Origin: Eledone cirrhosa
Lineage: Eukaryota
Reading direction: 5' to 3'
Assembly (NCBI GenBank): GCA_964016885.1
Contig: OZ024749.1
Location: forward strand, 32,612,001-32,676,000
DNA length: 64,000 bases
Of this stretch, positions 1,621-37,394 are shown piece after piece. The notes below the pieces were generated by a model. It was not told where the DNA came from, did no database searches, and saw only the letters and a list, made by a program, of their open reading frames with translations. The position numbers and the translations under genes were made by a program. Within the stretch, counting starts at the first letter, position 1. The number at the start of each line of letters is the position of its first letter.

Positions 1621-1807
1621 GTGTTTCTACGTTAGGCACAAGGCCAGTAAATTACCCAGTGCATTACTGGTACTTTATTTTATCGACCCCGTAAGGATGA
1701 AAGGCAAAGTCAACCTCGGCGGGATTTGAACTCAGATCGTAAAGGGACGTAACTATGCTGGAAAGCATGGCGTCCGACCCTCTACCGATACTGCCAATCC
1801 ACCGCCA
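1621..1807 (-). mobile_element. tRNA-derived SINE, dominant family (young subfamily)
   Basis: Minus strand shows an A-box-like tggcagtatcggtag, a B-box gagttcaaatcc and the core ttgcctttcatccttacggggtcgataaaataaagtaccag. Near-identical to the copies at 16806 and 36598. Confidence 0.9.
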
Positions 1808-1917
1808 TATATACACATAATAGACACACATACACCACCCTACATATATATACATACATACATACATATGTATATATATATATTAACAAATGGAAACTAT
1901 ATTTATAAAACCATATT

Positions 1918-1983
1918 TATTTCATTATACATATTTCAAGGGCCACCAAGGCAGATTATGGTGCGCTTTCATCAGATAAAATA
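1918..1983 (-). ncRNA. Minimal type I hammerhead ribozyme motif
   Basis: Minus strand reads tattttat-CTGATGA-aagcgcacca...tggtggccctt-GAAA-tatgta-TA-atgaaata, giving an 8-bp stem I, a pairing stem II and a near-palindromic stem III. Confidence 0.7.
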
Positions 1984-2128
1984 TAATATAGATTAGTTTT
2001 ATAAATAAATATTGACATACCCTGAAAAATGCAACCTTCACGGTGGGAGACTATCCAGGAGACGCCAACCGTGAAGGTTGCATTTTTCAGGGTATGTCAA
2101 TATTTATTTATAAAACTAATCTATATTA

Positions 2129-2189
2129 TATTTTATCTGATGAAAACGCACCATAATCTGCCTTGGTGGCCCTTGAAATATGTATAATG
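2129..2189 (+). ncRNA. Hammerhead ribozyme motif with stem I disrupted by LINE insertion
   Basis: CTGATGA at 2137-2143, GAAA at 2175-2178, predicted cleavage after 2186. The 3' strand of stem I is cut after 3 nt by the insertion at 2190. Confidence 0.6.
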
Positions 2190-2751
2190 TTTTCTTTATT
2201 AACCACAAGGGTTCACATAAAGTAGACATTAAGGACAGTACAGGACAATACAGGACGGTACAAATGGGCATTTCTGCGTGTAAAAAAACAGAGGTTGAAA
2301 TAAAATAACAAAGAAAAATTCCCCAATAGGGGGGAGACTTCCAGGGGACATTTGTGGAGAAAGCCCATTAAAAGACCACAGTGGCCCTGACCACCAGGGC
2401 AAGTGCCCTCTCCCAGTTTTCCACCTTTAATTTACAGACACATACTCAGAGAAGGCCCATTCATTCGGGCCATACTTGCTTCTCCCACCCATCTTTCAAC
2501 AAAATGCTGGGAAGAGAGCACTTCCCTCTCTACCCTGACTTTCCTTTTCAAATGAAATTTGAAAAAGTTAATCAGGGCATCACCGAAGAGGTAAGTGCTC
2601 GTCTTCAGCCCTTTCAAACGTGTCCACCATACTATCTCTTTCGCCATGGCCACCAGACAGATAAAAACTGCCTGCCCTTCCAGGCTAAAGGAAGGGGGCG
2701 AGGCAATCCTCACGATGGACTCAGCTGATAGCTGGATAGGTGTTTCTACGT
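2190..2751 (-). mobile_element. Tx1/L1-clade LINE 3' fragment
   Basis: ORF 2432-2713 (LVAMAKEIVWWTRLK...FVERWV) resembles the L1/Tx1 ORF2 C-terminus. It has a 3'UTR with AATAAA and a short A tail, and TSD tatgtataatg (2179-2189 / 2761-2771). Homologous to 62850-63190. Confidence 0.8.
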
Positions 2752-2910
2752 TATGTATAATATGTATAATGAAATAAATATGGTTTTATAAATATAGTTT
2801 CCATTTGTTAATATATTGTATATGTACTCCAATTAATTTGTTAAGTGCTTTATATCAGTTATAAAAATATTTTGCATGTTGTATCCCAACGAATTAAATA
2901 TAACCTCTAC

Positions 2911-2993
2911 ATATATATATATATATATATATATTGTTATACTTGGGGAGGGTCATATTTGTGTAATATTGCCAGAATTAATAACAAAACACA

Positions 2994-3059
<66 letters not shown>

Positions 3060-3668
3060 ATAGACCAAGCTATACACCATCCTACATACATACATATTTA
3101 TATATACACACACACATACACCACCCTATATACACATATATACACCACCCTATATACACACGCCGCCCCACAATACAAAAGTACCCGGATGTCTTGGTCA
3201 GGTGAGACTTACTGTTATTTATTAGTTAGCCATGGAACAGGTAAACTGGTAGGTTGTGTGTGTGTGTGTGTGTGTGTACATCTATATGTATGTGTGTATG
3301 TGTATGTGTGTGTATGAGTTATGTGTGTTTACATATATATGTATGTGTGTACATATATATATGTATATATTTGGGTGTGTGTATGAGTATATGTGTGTGA
3401 ATGCACACACATATATACATACATACATATATATATGTATGAGTGTGTGTGTATGTGTGTGTGCATGCATACACACACATATATATATACATACATACAT
3501 ATATACATGTGTGTGTGTGTGTGCGCGTATACACACACACAGATATATACACTTACATGCATATGTGTATGTGTTTGGCTGTCTAGAGATACACACACAC
3601 ATACACACACGTATATCTATACACGCACACATACACATATATATTTATGTATGTGTGTGTGTGTATGT

Positions 3669-3707
<39 letters not shown>

Positions 3708-3815
3708 GCTGACTAGAGATAGATATGTGTGTGTGTGTGTGTTGAGAGAGAGCGAGAGTATGTGTGTGTGTGAGAGAGAAAGAGAGAGAGGGGGTGAGTG
3801 TGTGTGTGTGAGAGG

Positions 3816-3861
<46 letters not shown>

Positions 3862-3936
3862 CTGACTAGAGATATATATGTGTGTGTGTTTCGCTGACTA
3901 GAGATAGATATGTGTGTGTGTGTGTGTGTGAGGAAG

Positions 3937-3968
<32 letters not shown>

Positions 3969-4020
3969 AGTGTGTGTGTGTGTGTGAGAGGGAGAGAGAG
4001 AGAGTACGTGTGTGTATTAG
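2911..4020. repeat. Compound (TA)n/(TG)n/(GA)n microsatellite field
   Basis: Dinucleotide runs seen directly. Confidence 0.9.
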
Positions 4021-4147
4021 TACGTTTGGCTGACTAAAGATACAGGTTGGAATGCTGGAATTTGTTAATTAAATTCAAATGAAGAATTTAAACTGAAAGA
4101 ACTGTGAGATAGTTAATCCGGATAAAGATGTGTATCGGATTACTGAC

Positions 4148-16531: not shown

Positions 16532-16989
16532 AGGGCGGTGGATTGGCAGTATCGGTAGAGGGTCTGACGCCATGCTTTGCAGCATAGAGTTACGGCCCTT
16601 TTCGGTCTGAGTTCAAATCCCGCCGGGGTTAACTTTGCCTTTCGTCCTTTCGGGATCGATAATATAAAGTACCAGTAATGCACTGGGATAATTGCTGGCC
16701 TTATGCCAAATGTAGAAACAACTATTTTAGATTGAAAGTATATACACAAATATAAACACATATAACAAATACAATTAACTATTGCTAGGAACCTCACAAA
16801 TATAACTGTTTCTACTTTAGGCACAAGGCCAGCAATTATCCAGTGCATTACTGGTACTTTATTTTATCGACCCCGTAAGGATGAAAGGCAAAGTCAACCT
16901 CGGCGGGATTTGAACTCAGATCGTAAAGGGACGTAACTATGCTGGAAAGCATGGCGTCCGACCCTCTACCGATACTGCCAATCCACCGC
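16532..16989. mobile_element. Tail-to-tail inverted SINE pair (+ 16532-16720; - 16806-16989)
   Basis: Both are full-length family copies; the second has TSD cacaaatataac. Confidence 0.9.
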
Positions 16990-19719: not shown

Positions 19720-20110
19720 TTTCTTCTCTTCTTCTTCGCCCACTTATCCCTGAGAGAGTCGTGGGGCAGAGTCCTCAAACACTCCTTCCATAGGGTCCTG
19801 TCAGAAGCAACCGTTTCCAACTGATCCGGCTGGATCCCCAAGCAAGACCAGCCAAGCTCATGGATGTTATCCAACCATCTTGCTCGGGGTCTACCCCTGG
19901 GTCTCTTGACGGTTGGTTTTACCCGTAAAATCAGTCCAATGATTGTTTCCTGAGACATTCTAATCACATGTCCATAGTATCGGAGCTGTGATCTCTCAAT
20001 TCGAAGAAGTAGTGTCTCTACCTGGAGTGACTCTCTGATCTCCGAGCTATGCACTTTATCGACTAACGTTACTCCAAAGACCCTTCGGAGGAATCCCATT
20101 TTGGCCGCTT
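19720..20110 (-). mobile_element. RTE-clade LINE 3' fragment
   Basis: MGFLRRVFGVT...RSQLRYYGHVIRM...KRPRGRPRARW, with an (AAG)-rich tail. Confidence 0.85.
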
Positions 20111-20679
20111 GTATACTACACCTAAGTCTTCCATTATAATTCCATCCACGAGTATGATCCTTTATAGGAATATTAAATTGACCCTAATGCTTGACGGAAG
20201 AGAAAAGAAAAGCAAAATTTCCCTGAGCAGGATTTTGAACTCAAAAAGTAAAAGGCCATCATTAGATACCACAGACATAGTGTCCGATTTATAATCTACA
20301 TTTTAGTTTTATCGGTTGTGGAAAAAAATTAATGAAAAATTCTAAATGTTATCGATTTTATGCCAGACGGACGAAAAAATAATCAATTTAGATTATTGAT
20401 CAAGGTGCAAAGGAGAGGAATTCTACTTTTTTTTCTTTTTAACAAAAATAAATCTAGACACCCAAACATATTCGAAATTATACGTTGAAATTATTATTTA
20501 ATAAAACATTCTAATTTGATTATCAAACCAATAGATCGAAATTTGTTCCCAAGAATTTATTTCTGCCTGCGAAGACATTTAATTGAACGGCTTGTATCAT
20601 AGACCAAGATATATCCGTGTGTGTATTCGTGTGTGTGTGTGTGAGAGAGTGTGCGTGGGTGTATGTATGTGTGTGTATG

Positions 20680-20710
<31 letters not shown>

Positions 20711-21158
20711 GTGTATATGTGTGTGTGTGTTTATGAATGTGTATGTGTGCGTATTCGTGTGTGCGTGTGTGTTTTTTAGGTATTTGTGTATGTGTTTATG
20801 TGTGTGTATGTATGTGTATGCGTGTGTGTATTTGTGGGTGTGTGTGTGTGTGTTTGTGTATGTGTATGTGTGCGAGTTAGAACTCAGTCGGTTCCAGCAG
20901 CGTATGTTCCTCTTATAGTGAGATTGAGAGTTATATAATTAACGCCTCATTATAAATCTGGAGTCTGAAACAATTTCATGATAAACATCCTTAGATAAAA
21001 CTGTGATGGAAAGTATTTAAATAAATATAAACACTGTAAAATAAACAGCTTAGTAACTTAAATAAATCAAGGAGCGGTTTCAGGTAGTTTGCTATCAAAA
21101 GGGTTAATCAAACAAATAGTTATAATGTCGAAATACCAAAGATCCCAGAGATTATAAT

Positions 21159-21789
21159 GATTTCTACAATAGGCATAATACCAGTAATTGGGGGGGGGGG
21201 AGTGAAAAGTCGATTAAATCGACCCAGTACATTACTGGTATTTTATTTTATCGACCCCGTAAGAATGAAAGGCAAAGCTAACCTCAGCTGGATTTGAACT
21301 CAGAATGTAAAGGGCCGTAACTATAAAACGCAAAGCATGTCGTCCGACGCTCTACCGATTACTGCCAAATGATTTCTACTATAGGCACAAGGCCAGCAAT
21401 TTGGGGGGAGGGAAAAATCGATTAAATTGACCCCAGTGCATGACTGGTACTTTATTTTATCGACCCCGTAAGGATGAAAGCAAAGCTAACCTCAGCAGGA
21501 TTTGAACTCAAAATGTAAAGGGCCGTGACTCTATGTCGTGAGGCAGGGTGCCGACGCTCTACCGATTACTGCCAAATGATTTCTACTATAGGCACAATGC
21601 CAGCAATTTGGGGGTAGGAGAAAATCAATTAAATCGACCGCATGACTGGTATTTTATTTTATCGACCCCGTAAGGATGAAAGGCAAAGCTAACCTCAGCA
21701 GGATTTGAACTCAGAATGTAAAGGGCCGTGACTCTATGTCCTGAAGCAGGGTGTCCGATGCTCTATCGATACTGTCAATCCACCGCCCT
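21159..21789 (-). mobile_element. Three head-to-tail SINE copies
   Basis: Units of ~210 bp joined by an identical gattactgccaaatgatttctactatagg junction, which points to local tandem amplification. Confidence 0.88.
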
Positions 21790-22703
21790 ACCATAGATTA
21801 TAATGAAATCTATTACTTTGTAACTTAAAGACAAGAATGTTTCAGCTTTGCTTTTGAAGACTAGATAGATGTTAGATATATCATTCAATGCTGGATTTCT
21901 AAAAGCTGGATATTTTTCATTATCTATATATAAAAAATTTATAAAATTCCTAAACAGATAGTTTAATAAATCTGGATATCAAATTACTATCTTTGTAAAT
22001 GACTTAACTGGAGCTTCATCTGGCATTGTGAATGACTTATCTAGAGTTTCACCTGGCATCACATCAAAATGAGTTTCTCATATTCATAGCTGATAATTTG
22101 TAAATATCAAAACCTTTTTTGAAACTGATCCAAAAGAGTGAAACTGTCTGGAACATACTCCACCGTCAATTCTTCTTTCTCTTCTGTTAGGAAATATTCC
22201 ATACACTTTTATCGGAACACTGATTCACATTTCCCTGTATTGGCAATGGAGTTAATAAACTGATTTAACCGTTGCAAATTCAAACTTTGATAGCTTAAGT
22301 GGCCAGTTATATCGATCAAAACTATCAAATTGCGCCACTATTTTTGTTCTCGTTTAGTCTTTAATCATTCTGACATCAAACCGCCTGCAAACGGCTTTGG
22401 TTATTCATTACAAAGCTCGATATTCTAAACTGTTGGTGTTCATATTAAAAACCTTCCATTGCAATTTTATGTAAGAACCTTTATTAAGTTATGTTTCAAA
22501 CATCAGCCTTAATTATTTCAGAATGATTTGAAAACTAAATGTTCTTTCATTAGAAATATAATAGTGGAAAGGTTAACAGCCATAAAAAGCTTCAACTTTA
22601 TCATAGAGCTGAGAGTGACGCGAAAAGATGGAATTTTACCAGCGAATGGCTCAATAAATCACTATTAATCACCATATTGAGTCTCGTAATCCTGCAAAAT
22701 TTT

Positions 22704-22798
<95 letters not shown>

Positions 22799-22836
22799 AT
22801 TAAATAAATGGAAAACTATATTTATAAAACCATATT

Positions 22837-22902
22837 TATTTCATTATATATATTTCGGGGATATCATATTAACAATATGCTATGCCTTCATCAGACAAAA
22901 TA
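22837..22902 (-). ncRNA. Hammerhead ribozyme motif (mirror copy)
   Basis: Reverse complement of 23059-23124. Confidence 0.68.
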
Positions 22903-23058
22903 CAATATAAACAGTTTTATAGATAAATATATTCGACATACCGTAATAAACATCAACTTCATTTGAAGAGGTTCACTCTAGCAGTAGAACCTCTTCAAAT
23001 GAAGTTGATGTTTATTATGGTATGTCGAATATATTTATCTATAAAACTGTTTATATTG

Positions 23059-23124
23059 TATTTTGTCTGATGAAGGCATAGCATATTGTTAATATGATAT
23101 CCCCGAAATATATATAATGAAATA
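23059..23124 (+). ncRNA. Minimal type I hammerhead ribozyme motif
   Basis: tattttgt-CTGATGA-a-gg...catattgttaatatg...cc-GAAA-tatata-TA-atgaaata, giving an 8-bp stem I and a palindromic ATATATAT stem III. Confidence 0.7.
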
Positions 23125-23252
23125 AATATGGTTTTATAAATATAGTTTTCCATTTATTTAATATTGTAAATATACTCCAAGTATTTGTCGAGTGCTTTTA
23201 TATCAGTTATAAATATTTACTAGTTGTAACCCAACAATTTTAAATATAACTT

Positions 23253-23349
<97 letters not shown>

Positions 23350-23670
23350 ACCACATGTTAAGTTGTTATCTTAGAAATAAAATATTCGATCCTCTTAGTA
23401 AATCCCTCAATATTTAATTGAAATAGTGTGTATTACATCAGATGTACTTTCAAGAATATTATGTGTGTGTGTGTGTTTTGAATACTTTCAAGAAAGTGTT
23501 CAAAACACACACACACACACACACACACACATAATATATATATATTAATTTATTAAATATTTAAATAAATATTTGCTCTAGGGTTCTTATATATTTGATA
23601 TATATTTATCCTTATCGAGTCCTCTTTGGATTTTAGTCTTCACATTTATTATTATTACTATGTATATATG

Positions 23671-23752
<82 letters not shown>

Positions 23753-23754
23753 TA

Positions 23755-23788
<34 letters not shown>

Positions 23789-23994
23789 CGCGTGTGTGTG
23801 TGTGTGAGTGTGTATGTGTGCGTGTGTGTGTATTATGTATATGTATGTATAAAGCAAATCAATGACGTTTTATTGTGTATCGACCTGTTACATGGGTTTC
23901 ACAGAGGATTGGCTCGAAGATGAGTAGATCGATAATGGAATCGGATCCATAATTTCTATTCGTGACCTTCAGCCAATCCTCTACGAAACGTGTG

Positions 23995-24031
<37 letters not shown>

Positions 24032-24179
24032 ACATGTCCCTGAGAACTACGTTAAGGGTACGCGTATCTGTGGAATGGTTACCCATTTGCACGTTAATTT
24101 CATGAGCAGGGTGTTCCATTGATCGGATCAAATGGAACACTCGTCGTCGTAACCGACGGAGTGTCAGTACTATATACAT

Positions 24180-24245
<66 letters not shown>

Positions 24246-24310
24246 CGTTTACGACATGAAGCTAAGGGAAGACTCATAGCAGAGCAACTTGAAATAAGCG
24301 TTATAAATAA

Positions 24311-24491
24311 TTGTTTCTACTTTTGGCACAAGGCCAGCAATTACCCAGTGCATTACTGGTACTTTATTTTATCGACCCCGTATGGATGAAAGGCAAAGTT
24401 AACCTCGGTGGGATTTGAACTCAGAATGGCAAGGGCCGTAACTCTAGGCGTCAAAGCATGGCGTCCGACCCTCTACTTATACTGCCAATCC
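24311..24491 (-). mobile_element. SINE (dominant family)
   Basis: Core and B box on the minus strand. Confidence 0.85.
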
Positions 24492-24907
24492 TTACTTTCA
24501 AAGAAGCTACTTGAAGATTCCAAATTTCTTGGATATTGTCCATTCTATATGAGAGAATGGCCTATATTTTCTTATCGGATGAAACTGCAGTAATGGCGAG
24601 ATTAACGGTAGAGCAAGCGCTCATATTAGGTTGCTTTGCTTGGAATTTCCACTAATTTTTTTAAAGTACGTCTAAGATTATGTGTATAATTCTCTGAGTG
24701 GTATTTTTAGCCATAATTTATTTAGATTCTCTGTACATCAGTGACACAAATAACCCTCTGTTTTATATATATATATATAAGTGATAATAATAGTATTAAG
24801 TTGAGTATTGAAACTTTACCGGATGGTTAGAAGCTCAATGCAATGGGGGTACACGCAGAGCTGTTATATATTTGGTGTGTTTTTTTTATAAATAGTATAT
24901 ATATATA

Positions 24908-25052
24908 TAACAAAGGAATACTCAATACTTAGGGTAGTAGAGTGGAAAATAGGAAAAAGTATGACCCCGACGGCAGAGCTCGAGCCGTTTCGACAGCTAT
25001 TTCTGAGTCCAGAAATAGCCGTCGAAACGGCACGAGCTCTGCCGTCGGGGTC
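24908..25052 (-). mobile_element. tRNA(Trp)-like fold-back element, second copy
   Basis: Arms ~24963-25005 / 25010-25052 with the same apex as 14825; flanked by (TA)n. Confidence 0.65.
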
Positions 25053-25064
25053 TTGAACATTTTC

Positions 25065-25096
<32 letters not shown>

Positions 25097-25102
<6 letters not shown>

Positions 25103-25470
25103 GAATAAACAAGAGAGATGAACACTAATATAAACATACATATGTTCGAATCGTAAGAACCAAATTTGCTAGGGTGAAAAAATACTAACTACAGCAATAT
25201 GGTTTGTTATCCTAGGCGTTTTGCCCAATATAGGTCTGTTATTTTTCTTAATTTTTCTAAATTTAATATTTAAAGTTAAGGATTACAAACCATGTTGCTG
25301 TAATTAGTATTTTTTTCACCCTAGCAAATTTGGTCCTTACGATTCAAACACATGTATGTTTGTATTAGTGTTCATCTCTCTTGTTTATTCAATTATATTG
25401 TACGGCTCGGAAAAGCTTTTTTCTTAGCTCTAAGAAAAAAGCTTTTCCGAGCCGTACAATATAATTGAAT
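25097..25470. repeat. Double fold-back structure
   Basis: 25097-25213 pairs with 25279-25397 (imperfect). A second, perfect ~40-bp-arm hairpin spans 25388-25469. Confidence 0.85.
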
Positions 25471-25528
25471 ATATATCATACAATAAAGCAATTATGGTGA
25501 AATAAACCCGTATTAACTACTCTTCTTT

Positions 25529-25588
<60 letters not shown>

Positions 25589-25626
25589 ATAAAAAAGATA
25601 AATTTGTTAGGTCTTCATTATGTGTA

Positions 25627-26288
25627 TTGAGTTCAAATCCCGCCGAGGTTGACTTTGCCTTTCATCCTTACGGGGTCGATAAAATAAAGTACCAGTAATG
25701 CACTGGGTATTTGCTGGCCTTGTGCCTAAAGTAGAAACAATTATGTGTATTGAGTAGTGACGCACGTTTCGCTATTGATCAGCTTAAGGTTCGATCTGGA
25801 ATATATATGTTTATATATATATAACAGTAATTGTTTTCTATGCGTGTTTGACATTTTTAAAATTATATATATATGTGCGTGTGTCTGTGTGTGTGCGTGT
25901 TTGGAACAGGCTGATTCTCATATAGGAATACCTAATATTCCTAATGTTATGTTGAATTTAACGAAGCAATTTTGTGGCAATATAATTCTTACTCTTAAAG
26001 TAGCTGTGCATTGTACTTTAAGAGTTGCCTCTCTTAGATTATATAAGAGTTCCTTCCCCTGCATAATTTTTAAGCGTAACCCATTTCTAGAATAGAAAGG
26101 GCGGTGGATTGGCAGTATCAGTAGAGGGTCGGACGCCATGCTTTGACGCATAGAGTTACGGCCCTTACCATTCTGAGTTCAAATCCCGCCGAGGTTAACT
26201 TTGCCTTTCATCCTTATGGGGTCGATAAAATAAAGTACCAGTAATACACTGGGTAACTGCTGGCCTTGTGCCAATAGTAGAAACAATT
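25627..26288 (+). mobile_element. Two SINE copies (5'-truncated 25627-25740; full 26098-26288)
   Basis: The first is flanked by the direct repeat attatgtgtattgagt. Confidence 0.85.
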
Positions 26289-33013: not shown

Positions 33014-33377
33014 AGTTATGTCGGTTAACTCGAGCAAATTATTGAAATAAAGATGCCAGTCAGTCCCAAGGTAAAGGAGGGGCTAGACTGGGGCTGGATG
33101 AGATAGAACTTGCTACAGTAACTTTCCAAAGATACCAAAGGAAACCTTCATTCATCATTATTCTTCATTAACTAATTGAAATAGACTGTATTTCATTAGA
33201 AATACGGTAATGAAAGGGTTAATGAAAAATAAAGTTTTTTCAGAAAACTTCTTTCAAAATAAGAATTAATTACTATTAAAGATATTTGTCATGAAATAAC
33301 TCCTTTTCGTGTGCTGGAGTAATGAAATTCTAATGATTTTGGGGGTAAAACAAATAGTTACATATAGACATAATAAT

Positions 33378-33790
33378 AGTTTCTTATATAGGCACAAGGC
33401 CATCAATTTGGAGGGGATGGGAAAGTCGATTAAATCGACCCCAGTGCGTGACTGATACTTTATTTTATCAACCCCGTAAGGATGAAAGGCAAAGTTAACC
33501 TCAGCGGGATTTGAACTCAGATTATAAAGGGTGGCATCCGACCTTCTACCAATACTGCCAATCCACCACCCTACATATAGACATAATAATGGTTTCTTAT
33601 ATAGGCACAAGGCCAGCAATTTGTGTGTAGGGGGGGGGGGGGTCGATTAAATCGACCGCAGTGCATTACTGGTGCTTTATTTTATTGACCCCGTAAGGAT
33701 GAAAGGCAAAGTTAATCTCGGTGGGATTTGAACTCAGAATATAAAGGGTCGTAACTCTGCGTTGCAAAGCATGGCATCCGACCCTCGCCC
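33378..33790 (-). mobile_element. Two tandem SINE copies
   Basis: Core domain present twice; the nearer one starts ~45 nt past the exon 5 donor. Confidence 0.85.
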
Positions 33791-37278: not shown

Positions 37279-37335
37279 TCAATCAACATAAAGTATAAGT
37301 CAACAGGTTAAAATTAACTTCATTAATTCAAAGTC

Positions 37336-37394
37336 GCTGCTATATATATTTCAGTGATAACCATTATGCAACAGCTATGACCTCATCAGACAGC
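37336..37394 (-). ncRNA. Minimal type I hammerhead ribozyme motif, sense in Rab27 intron
   Basis: gctgt-CTGATGA-ggt-c-atagctgtt-gcat-aatggttat-c-act-GAAA-tatata-TA-gcagc. All core nucleotides are present and stems I-III pair; a short tail is followed by (TA)n. Confidence 0.72.

Follow-up and report, generated by a model that had tools for sequence, protein, structure and literature searches.

The locus considered here raises the question of whether a compact palindrome that carries a hammerhead-like motif in each of its arms is a mobile unit in its own right, or one of the forms in which a larger retroelement is integrated into the genome. The palindrome lies in a 64,000-nucleotide stretch of the Eledone cirrhosa genome (contig OZ024749.1, positions 32,612,001 to 32,676,000), to which we refer as the window and from whose first letter coordinates are counted. 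An initial annotation, made from the sequence alone, entertained both a non-autonomous family of mobile ribozymes and a stereotyped insertion product of a Penelope-like element (PLE). We consider it probable, with good confidence, that the palindrome is a 5′-truncated head-to-head insertion of a young Hydra-type PLE, likely made of two run-off cDNAs joined to each other.

The palindrome and its parent element

The 463-base unit consists of two 182-bp arms (22793-22974 and 22987-23168) that differ at a single pair of positions (G at 22943, T at 23018) and enclose a 12-nt loop, ACTCTAGCAGTA; an unpaired stretch of 87 nt (23169-23255) follows on the right side only, and (TA)n tracts are present on either side (22740-22794 and 23259-23346). 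These dimensions confirm those of the initial annotation. When placed on the monomer of the parent element, the left part of the unit (22793-22985, minus strand) represents an inverted, tail-less pLTR arm, monomer 3743-3935, and the right part (22987-23255, plus strand) a direct pLTR arm with its tail, monomer 3754-4022, which reaches the 3′ end of the 4,022-nt element. The left arm stops exactly at monomer 3743, on its 22985 side, at the A of a TTCACT motif that is the predicted transcription start; one extra A (22986) comes next, the right arm begins at 3754, and the loop (22975-22986) is made of the 11 first pLTR nucleotides in reverse plus this extra A. The one-sided PLE tail (23169-23255), which measures 87 nt, or 81 nt if a TA-like end is assigned to the arm, sits between the two fixed outer ends. 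The left target repeat spans 22740-22792, where any target-site duplication would be masked, and on the right ATGTA precedes the (TA)n target repeat (23256-23346). On its plus strand, the direct arm contains a putative DPE-like AGTTG (23003-23007; +28 to +32 when the intact element is numbered from monomer 3743), a putative splice-donor-like GTATGT (23020-23025; +45), which is retained in the sister subfamily, and a hammerhead-like motif of the type I PLE kind (23059-23124). Locus comparison assigns the sole arm mismatch to a private C>T change at a CpG, the T at 23018 being a C in 29/29 other loci compared. The exact junction of the window, extra A included, is found at two places in the genome, the second on contig 8; a segmental duplication as the source of this second occurrence was ruled out, since the flanks are unrelated.

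The right arm and its tail (269 nt) have at least 923 candidate matches in the genome, the best 40 of these 923 being end-to-end at about 100%, and most of the 30 loci inspected extend upstream into a common body. Tandem copies spaced 4,022 nt apart (L031) define the monomer, whose last 280 nt, the pLTR, correspond to arm plus tail. An ORF begins 49 nt past the tail in these tandem copies and is intact in L032 (736 aa) and in L033 and L034 (737 aa). The 736-aa ORF displays the RT motifs DIANYYSS, ITMGS, YRDD and NFLD, followed by a C-terminal GIY-YIG motif (IVY...NYVG...R...H) with a two-strand core in the predicted structure. Its AlphaFold model (pLDDT 84) retrieved TERT as the top Foldseek match (E 5.5e-10), and it could be aligned with 14 of 18 homologs, among which the only named one comes from Argonauta. 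Searches with the ORF gave no match in Pfam and nothing in the sequence search of the PDB; a profile search produced one weak retron RT match (E 0.0086), and the homolog P0003 matched PF01541 weakly, at an E of 0.012 that lies under the curated cut-off. The unit that had been described as protein-free is the end-piece of a 4,022-nt PLE encoding an intact 736-aa protein with RT and GIY-YIG, and the suggestion to look for a PLE of that composition sharing the tail proved fruitful, as both the arm and the tail are shared.

The element unites a telomerase-like RT, a C-terminal GIY-YIG, partial tandem pLTRs, an inverted 5′-truncated copy and a one-sided tail, features that characterise EN+ PLEs. 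Its ORF bears RWR (a variant of RWK), DKT, CNCRDRSKC (CxCX5C), CDLC and CKH, and has no CCHH; judged by these motifs it would be a member of the Hydra clade, whose (TA)n targeting and pLTR hammerhead are both found as well. The family is young and abundant, with intact ORFs, and the locus in the window is an ordinary short Hydra-type PLE insertion.

Related and unrelated repeats occur elsewhere in the window. At 1870-2904 there is an older palindrome of a sister subfamily, 79-85% identical to the young family and with its own hammerhead; an insert of about 570 nt, with the 12-nt direct repeat ATATGTATAATG at its flanks, interrupts the right arm of this palindrome in the region of the predicted cut. 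The palindrome has at least 881 candidate matches genome-wide. A hammerhead-like motif of a third family adjoins (TA)n at 37333-37394 on the minus strand. Short fold-backs are clustered between (TA)n tracts at 24949-25068, 25095-25398 and 25386-25471, and the palindromes of 24940-25490 contain no CTGANGA core. Finally, a repeat family of about 207 nt, presumably a SINE, is arranged in tandem and inverted pairs at 16535-16989, 21156-21778, 24302-24491, 25628-25749 and 33359-33749.

Arm ends and the formation of inverted insertions

Across the genome, exact matching counted 1,696 ends of the tail and 1,233 outer ends of inverted arms that abut (TA)n, as well as 380 arms that run on upstream of the apex and 27 palindromes with the exact 11-nt apex. 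A sample was formed by the first 100 exact tail ends on contig 1, and hence comes from one contig arm and demands an exact tail match; it comprises 95 terminal and 5 internal ends. TA-rich DNA follows the 3′ end in 93/95 of these insertions, and an inverted arm is present within 6 kb in 68/95, a count in which it was considered that the low-complexity 3′ region breaks the alignments of long copies. The outer ends of both arms are fixed, at monomer 4022 for the tail arm and at 3935-3941 for the inverted arm (43/62 at 3941), the latter spread reflecting the TA-like end. Inspection by eye of 9 hand-picked loci revealed duplicated interruptions of the TA flanks, candidate traces of a target-site duplication, in L068, L076, L080, L101, L103, L136 and L144; at the window any such duplication would be masked by (TA)n. 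Tail ends (L031, 3187-3236) consist of TTTAC followed by ATGTA or ATATA; as ATGTA is what comes next in the element itself, the start site on this side may vary by a few bases.

As to whether arm length and apex are fixed or variable, a question posed by the initial annotation, the answer is twofold: spans are continuous from 141 to 6,394 nt in the 95 insertions, with 21 at 440-500 nt, and a form of about 470 nt like that of the window, with mixed junctions, accounts for 17/95, about a fifth. The idea of a stereotyped PLE insertion product is borne out, as the two arms of these 17 insertions end within one and the same 21-nt interval, monomer 3740-3760. Considered separately, 24/95 tail arms (23 without L096, an indel artefact) and 24/62 inverted arms end in this interval. 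The per-base stop rate there is 0.018 for the tail arm and 0.027 for the inverted arm, versus 0.0009 and 0.0013 in 3801-3900, that is, about 20 times higher. The boundary is sharp, with 42 arm ends in 3743-3752 versus 13 in 3733-3742, 5 of the latter belonging to arms that continue further, which leaves about 8 true ends; the subfamily SNPs at 3751, 3754 and 3762 were taken into account in these breakpoint counts. In the sister subfamily, whose upstream DNA is unrelated, arms stop at the same CACT, between 0 and +8 in 20/32 arms of a selected sample.

Monomer 3743 is the A of TTCACT and is predicted to be a transcription start. The DPE consensus is RGWYV. The spacing of the initiator at 3743, the DPE-like AGTTG and the splice-donor-like GTATGT appears close to that of the mapped D. 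virilis Penelope promoter; because the base at which arms pile up has this spacing, the arms of short palindromes are likely run-off cDNAs. Several points speak against such a start. A cap-derived G is found at only one of five junctions ending at 3743, that of L128, and is absent from L066, L094, L105 and L117. The upstream pLTRs of four tandem copies begin at 2531-3376 and not at 3743, so that many templates must have begun further upstream. A long pyrimidine tract immediately before 3743 could also stall the enzyme in this subfamily. In the literature searched, to which most subscription papers did not belong, we found no report of both arms piling up at a predicted start.

The insertion would be formed as follows. 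The PLE enzyme would prime two cDNAs, one on each side of a cut in (TA)n, from two fixed start points located 81-87 nt apart. Since these start points would lie within the first 280 nt of the transcript, priming in the upstream pLTR would give cDNAs of about 280 nt and about 195 nt. Both cDNAs would run off at the RNA 5′ end before being joined through microhomologies of 2-6 nt (ACT/AGT, AG, CT, GCTAGC). Arm junctions show overlaps of 0-6 nt or short inserts. Among the 58 two-armed insertions, the inverted arm extends more than 20 nt further in 18, the tail arm is longer in 12, and the two are about equal in 28; an inverted arm that is longer cannot be a copy of the tail arm, so at least 18 insertions took two cDNAs. 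The data favour two cDNAs from sense RNA over self-priming or an antisense template. We would give even chances to a broader scheme in which one RNA is copied twice to yield the head-to-head form, run-off mass-produces a cassette of about 470 bp with a promoter at its apex, and ADAR-edited read-through hairpins are re-inserted whole, the RNA edits thereby entering inherited DNA and acting as barcodes of single molecules in the transposition pathway.

It could also be postulated that a single tail-primed cDNA, folded back at the TTCACT/AGTGAA hairpin, serves as its own primer for the second arm, in which case the hot spot would be the fold-back site rather than the RNA 5′ end. Such self-priming has been proposed for rotifer PLEs in the accessible part of one report (PMC3846280), the 6-bp hairpin is present in the G-type SNP class, and private SNPs, in L080 also edits, are common to the two arms. 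The loop orientation predicted by this process, GCTAG, is the commoner one in the 27 palindromes with the exact apex (16 GCTAG, 10 CTAGC-type and 1 unscored), but the 10 in the opposite orientation do not conform to it. Moreover, the stop persists in L098 and L127, whose SNP type does not have the 6-bp hairpin, and in single-armed copies such as L128, the longer arm is on the tail-less side in the 18 insertions mentioned above, and the outer end of the inverted arm is fixed, which makes self-priming by fold-back an unlikely origin. The ribozyme family of the initial annotation, spreading mainly as a hairpin-RNA unit of about 470 nt with the PLE enzyme supplied in trans, is hard to sustain as the rule and seems to us very improbable. 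Some junctions do come back: in a sample of 41 matched short palindromes, enriched for the 11-nt apex, the recurrent ones have 15, 9, 7 and 2 members, the +A junction of the window occurs twice between unrelated flanks, and L056, whose apex is standard, carries A>G changes on a single strand in both of its arms, as a whole hairpin copied back into DNA would. However, 12 junction types were counted among those 41 short palindromes, insertion lengths are continuous, and the SNP types of short and long copies agree. Identical junctions also appear in different SNP types (L116 versus L075, L110 and L159; L108 versus L143). Matching SNP types and junctions that recur across them argue for independent formation rather than for the spread of a unit. 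A non-autonomous unit would have a fixed length and junction and diagnostic SNPs of its own, and with the exception of L056 these are not found; no daughter of L056 was present among the best 40 scored matches, the next best being at 88%. Occasional re-mobilisation of short palindromes is likely, given L056. Nor does the locus resemble a non-LTR retrozyme, as the unit is head-to-head and the only tandems are 4-kb ORF-bearing monomers. Separately, the copies L151 and L152 (G000:C1:193357601-193365994), which lie 2.1 kb apart and have a common 5′ junction and flank, are probably a local duplication.

The hammerhead-like motif and two probably edited copies

The plus-strand motif (23059-23124) comprises CUGAUGA at 23067, a helix II of 31 nt, GAAA and AUAUAUAU, with a palindromic helix III and a predicted cut after 23116; it is placed at monomer 3834-3883, inside the pLTR. 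Helix I has the 8 pairs that were originally proposed, two of them being G-U, and helix II opens with an A-C pair, unless the A is unpaired. A mirror motif is located on the minus strand at 22902-22837. The initial annotation had described a hammerhead on each strand; the motif itself is present, and the two ribozymes amount to one sequence, because the inverted repeat duplicates it. The covariance-model check recommended at that time turned out negative: an Rfam scan of 20000-26000 gave 38 matches at E<=1, none of them a hammerhead and only miRNA-type hairpins arising by chance. Such a result is expected for the minimal hammerhead variants of PLEs, yet it is still a miss. Likewise, the 74-nt motif folds no better than its shuffles (z 0.03).

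In 1.24 Mb of sampled loci the motif pattern has 74 distinct matches, and none on the reversed sequence. The pairing of helix II is kept in 72/98 cases across 14 clusters, versus a shuffle mean of 59.9 and with 1/2000 shuffles attaining the observed value, and that of helix I in 66/84, versus a mean of 60.1 and with 47/2000 shuffles attaining it; these clusters are mutually related and include decayed singletons, so the shuffle fractions are not to be taken as probabilities. The support for helix I thus appears weaker than that for helix II. Together with these covarying helices, the CUGANGA, GAAA and UH core is that of a type I hammerhead, and to judge from its conservation we take the motif to be a real one of this family and not a product of chance. 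A C-C mismatch occupies position 4 of helix II in 10/14 clusters (L082-L232 and the window) while the surrounding pairs vary, and is possibly a tertiary contact.

The ribozyme fold has an energy of -0.9 to -3.0 kcal/mol, versus -6.2 for the best fold, and a self-duplex of helix III was computed at -3.2 kcal/mol. In the hairpin that would result from read-through (-291.7 kcal/mol) the catalytic core is 99.96% paired and would therefore not fold as a ribozyme. The hammerhead is carried along as a part of the pLTR and, if active, is predicted to be a weak ribozyme acting as a dimer or with the assistance of a protein. The rod-like hairpin that had been envisaged for transcripts of either strand would hold for read-through from outside the insertion; transcripts begun at the predicted promoter in the apex would contain a single arm. 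Host read-through would produce a long hairpin RNA that ADAR likely edits and that would rarely be copied back into the genome.

Two sister copies bear what are likely marks of such editing. L056 (G000:C2:369869494-369869961) is a 468-nt palindrome like that of the window. It differs from L054 at 56 positions, and 56/56 of these changes are A>G; they follow one continuous strand across the two arms, where they affect 56/145 A, as compared with 0/33 in the tail (p 1.3e-6). By 5′ neighbour, the edited A are 29/64 after U, 21/46 after A, 4/18 after C and 2/16 after G. L056 is likely a whole edited hairpin RNA that was re-inserted starting at the 3935-3941 site. The second copy, L080 (G000:C1:52533266-52539566), is a long insertion in which 129/155 substitutions are A>G and cover 1685-3892; they amount to 127/507 A in 1681-3941, 2/163 in 1270-1680 and 0/27 in the tail, and are depleted after G (8/62 versus about 27% elsewhere, p 0.019). 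As many as 59/61 edits are common to both arms. The likely origin of L080 is a sense RNA that was edited where it paired with the inverted arm and then copied into both arms, with one RNA as template. Gene conversion from arm to arm could also be the source of the shared edits; the arms of L056 now differ from each other at 56 positions, which means that arms do not always become homogenised, though this is possible for L080.

Depletion of an upstream G is the signature of ADAR, and in lizards the RNA of Penelope undergoes heavy editing (PMC5625713). The scars of L056 and L080 are likely ADAR-like editing written into DNA. Edited copies are rare, with 2 insertions among 366 distinct arms examined without a divergence filter; two targeted pattern searches yielded no third one, and the window copy has no editing scar. 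The changes are known from the assembly alone, which leaves room for an assembly artefact or for DNA-level damage of a hairpin strand. Four public contig sets compared with L056 at 95% cover its unedited tail and apex and lack the edited stretches, but contigs drop rare variants, so this comparison neither confirms nor refutes the editing. Artefact or damage nevertheless looks quite unlikely to us: there is one substitution type, it is confined to the paired arms, an upstream G is disfavoured as for ADAR, and in L080 the changes occupy one strand in the first arm and the opposite strand in the other, which fits cDNA copying and would not result from damage to a single strand. L056 has a mixed CA/TA flank that could be read as an edited (TA)n; this was not used, since such repeats are common locally. 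In the literature searched, in which few subscription papers were within reach, no report of ADAR-edited PLE copies in genomes was found.

Significance and relation to known systems

Being young and abundant and having intact ORFs, this family offers a good system in which to study the steps that follow priming and give PLE insertions their inverted form. From the sharpness of the arm boundary one would predict that transcription starts there and that run-off yields two cDNAs, each of a definite length. Should raw DNA bear out the edited copies, they would demonstrate that a single RNA molecule can give rise to both arms and that re-insertion can involve a hairpin RNA as a whole. Some 300 of the short palindromes, by a rough extrapolation (17/95 x 1,696), together with a larger number of long ones, would then be marked as likely dsRNA and ADAR substrates. 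The inverted architecture is already in print; neither the clustering of arm ends at the predicted start nor the edited copies in the genome came up in the literature searched.

The accessible part of the account of Hydra-clade PLEs (Craig et al. 2021, PMC8557442) already presents the insertion form, an inverted 5′-truncated copy with a one-sided tail. The agreement with the element described here extends to the single ORF with the RT followed by a C-terminal GIY-YIG, to the DKT, the CxCX5C linker, the lack of CCHH and the CxxC and CxH around the E/N, and to the pLTR hammerhead, the (TA)n targets, the partial tandems, the inverted 5′-truncated copy and the tail at one end. The differences are a monomer of 4.0 kb as opposed to 'generally <3 kb', RWR instead of RWK, a tail of 81-87 nt and not of 30-40 bp, and the accumulation of ends from the two arms at a single base, which that part of the account does not describe. 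The family or a near relative may be listed in the supplement of the same paper. As far as the available text goes, pairs of opposite-strand hammerheads 100-700 bp apart have been reported in metazoan PLEs (Cervera and de la Pena 2014, PMC4209133), and these share with the present motif the long helix II with an additional base at its 5′ end, the palindromic helix III and the predicted dimer. In the present family, unlike in those, helix I has 8 pairs and the C-C at position 4 of helix II is found in 10/14 clusters. Published hammerheads of this PLE type have weak cleavage activity, in dimeric form or when assisted by protein, and can be dispensed with in vitro (PMC4209133 and PMC11167929).

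Regarding the junctions, the sections available of the rotifer Penelope study (Arkhipova et al. 2013, PMC3846280) describe palindromic head-to-head junctions and a TCACT initiator-like motif in the pLTRs. The corresponding sections of the D. virilis study, in which the Penelope promoter was mapped, place an intron 46 bp past the start site (Schostak et al. 2008, PMC2377424). As in rotifers, the inverted pLTR overlaps the direct one and palindromes form at head-to-head junctions, and an initiator-like TCACT, a DPE-like motif and a putative splice donor about 46 bp past the start are further points shared with the rotifer and D. virilis work. In what could be seen of these papers, the junctions are attributed to self-priming, possibly on an antisense template, whereas two cDNAs from sense RNA are proposed here. 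A biochemical parallel is the PAc protein of the green anole Poseidon element, which cuts and extends both strands and begins synthesis at two internal sites, between which the tail lies (Frangione et al. 2024, PMC11167929). Cutting and extension of both strands, two internal RT start sites and AT-rich targets are points of likeness with the scheme put forward above, as is a hammerhead that in PAc is protein-assisted and dispensable in vitro. PAc belongs to the Poseidon clade, its start sites are inside the ORF, and the steps that join the products are left open in that work. As for animal non-LTR retrozymes (bioRxiv 10.64898/2026.07.22.740005), the accessible part of the report likewise describes a type I hammerhead akin to that of PLE pLTRs and a unit without protein; retrozymes form head-to-tail tandems with a ribozyme in each unit, whereas the palindrome of the window is a head-to-head piece of an autonomous element.
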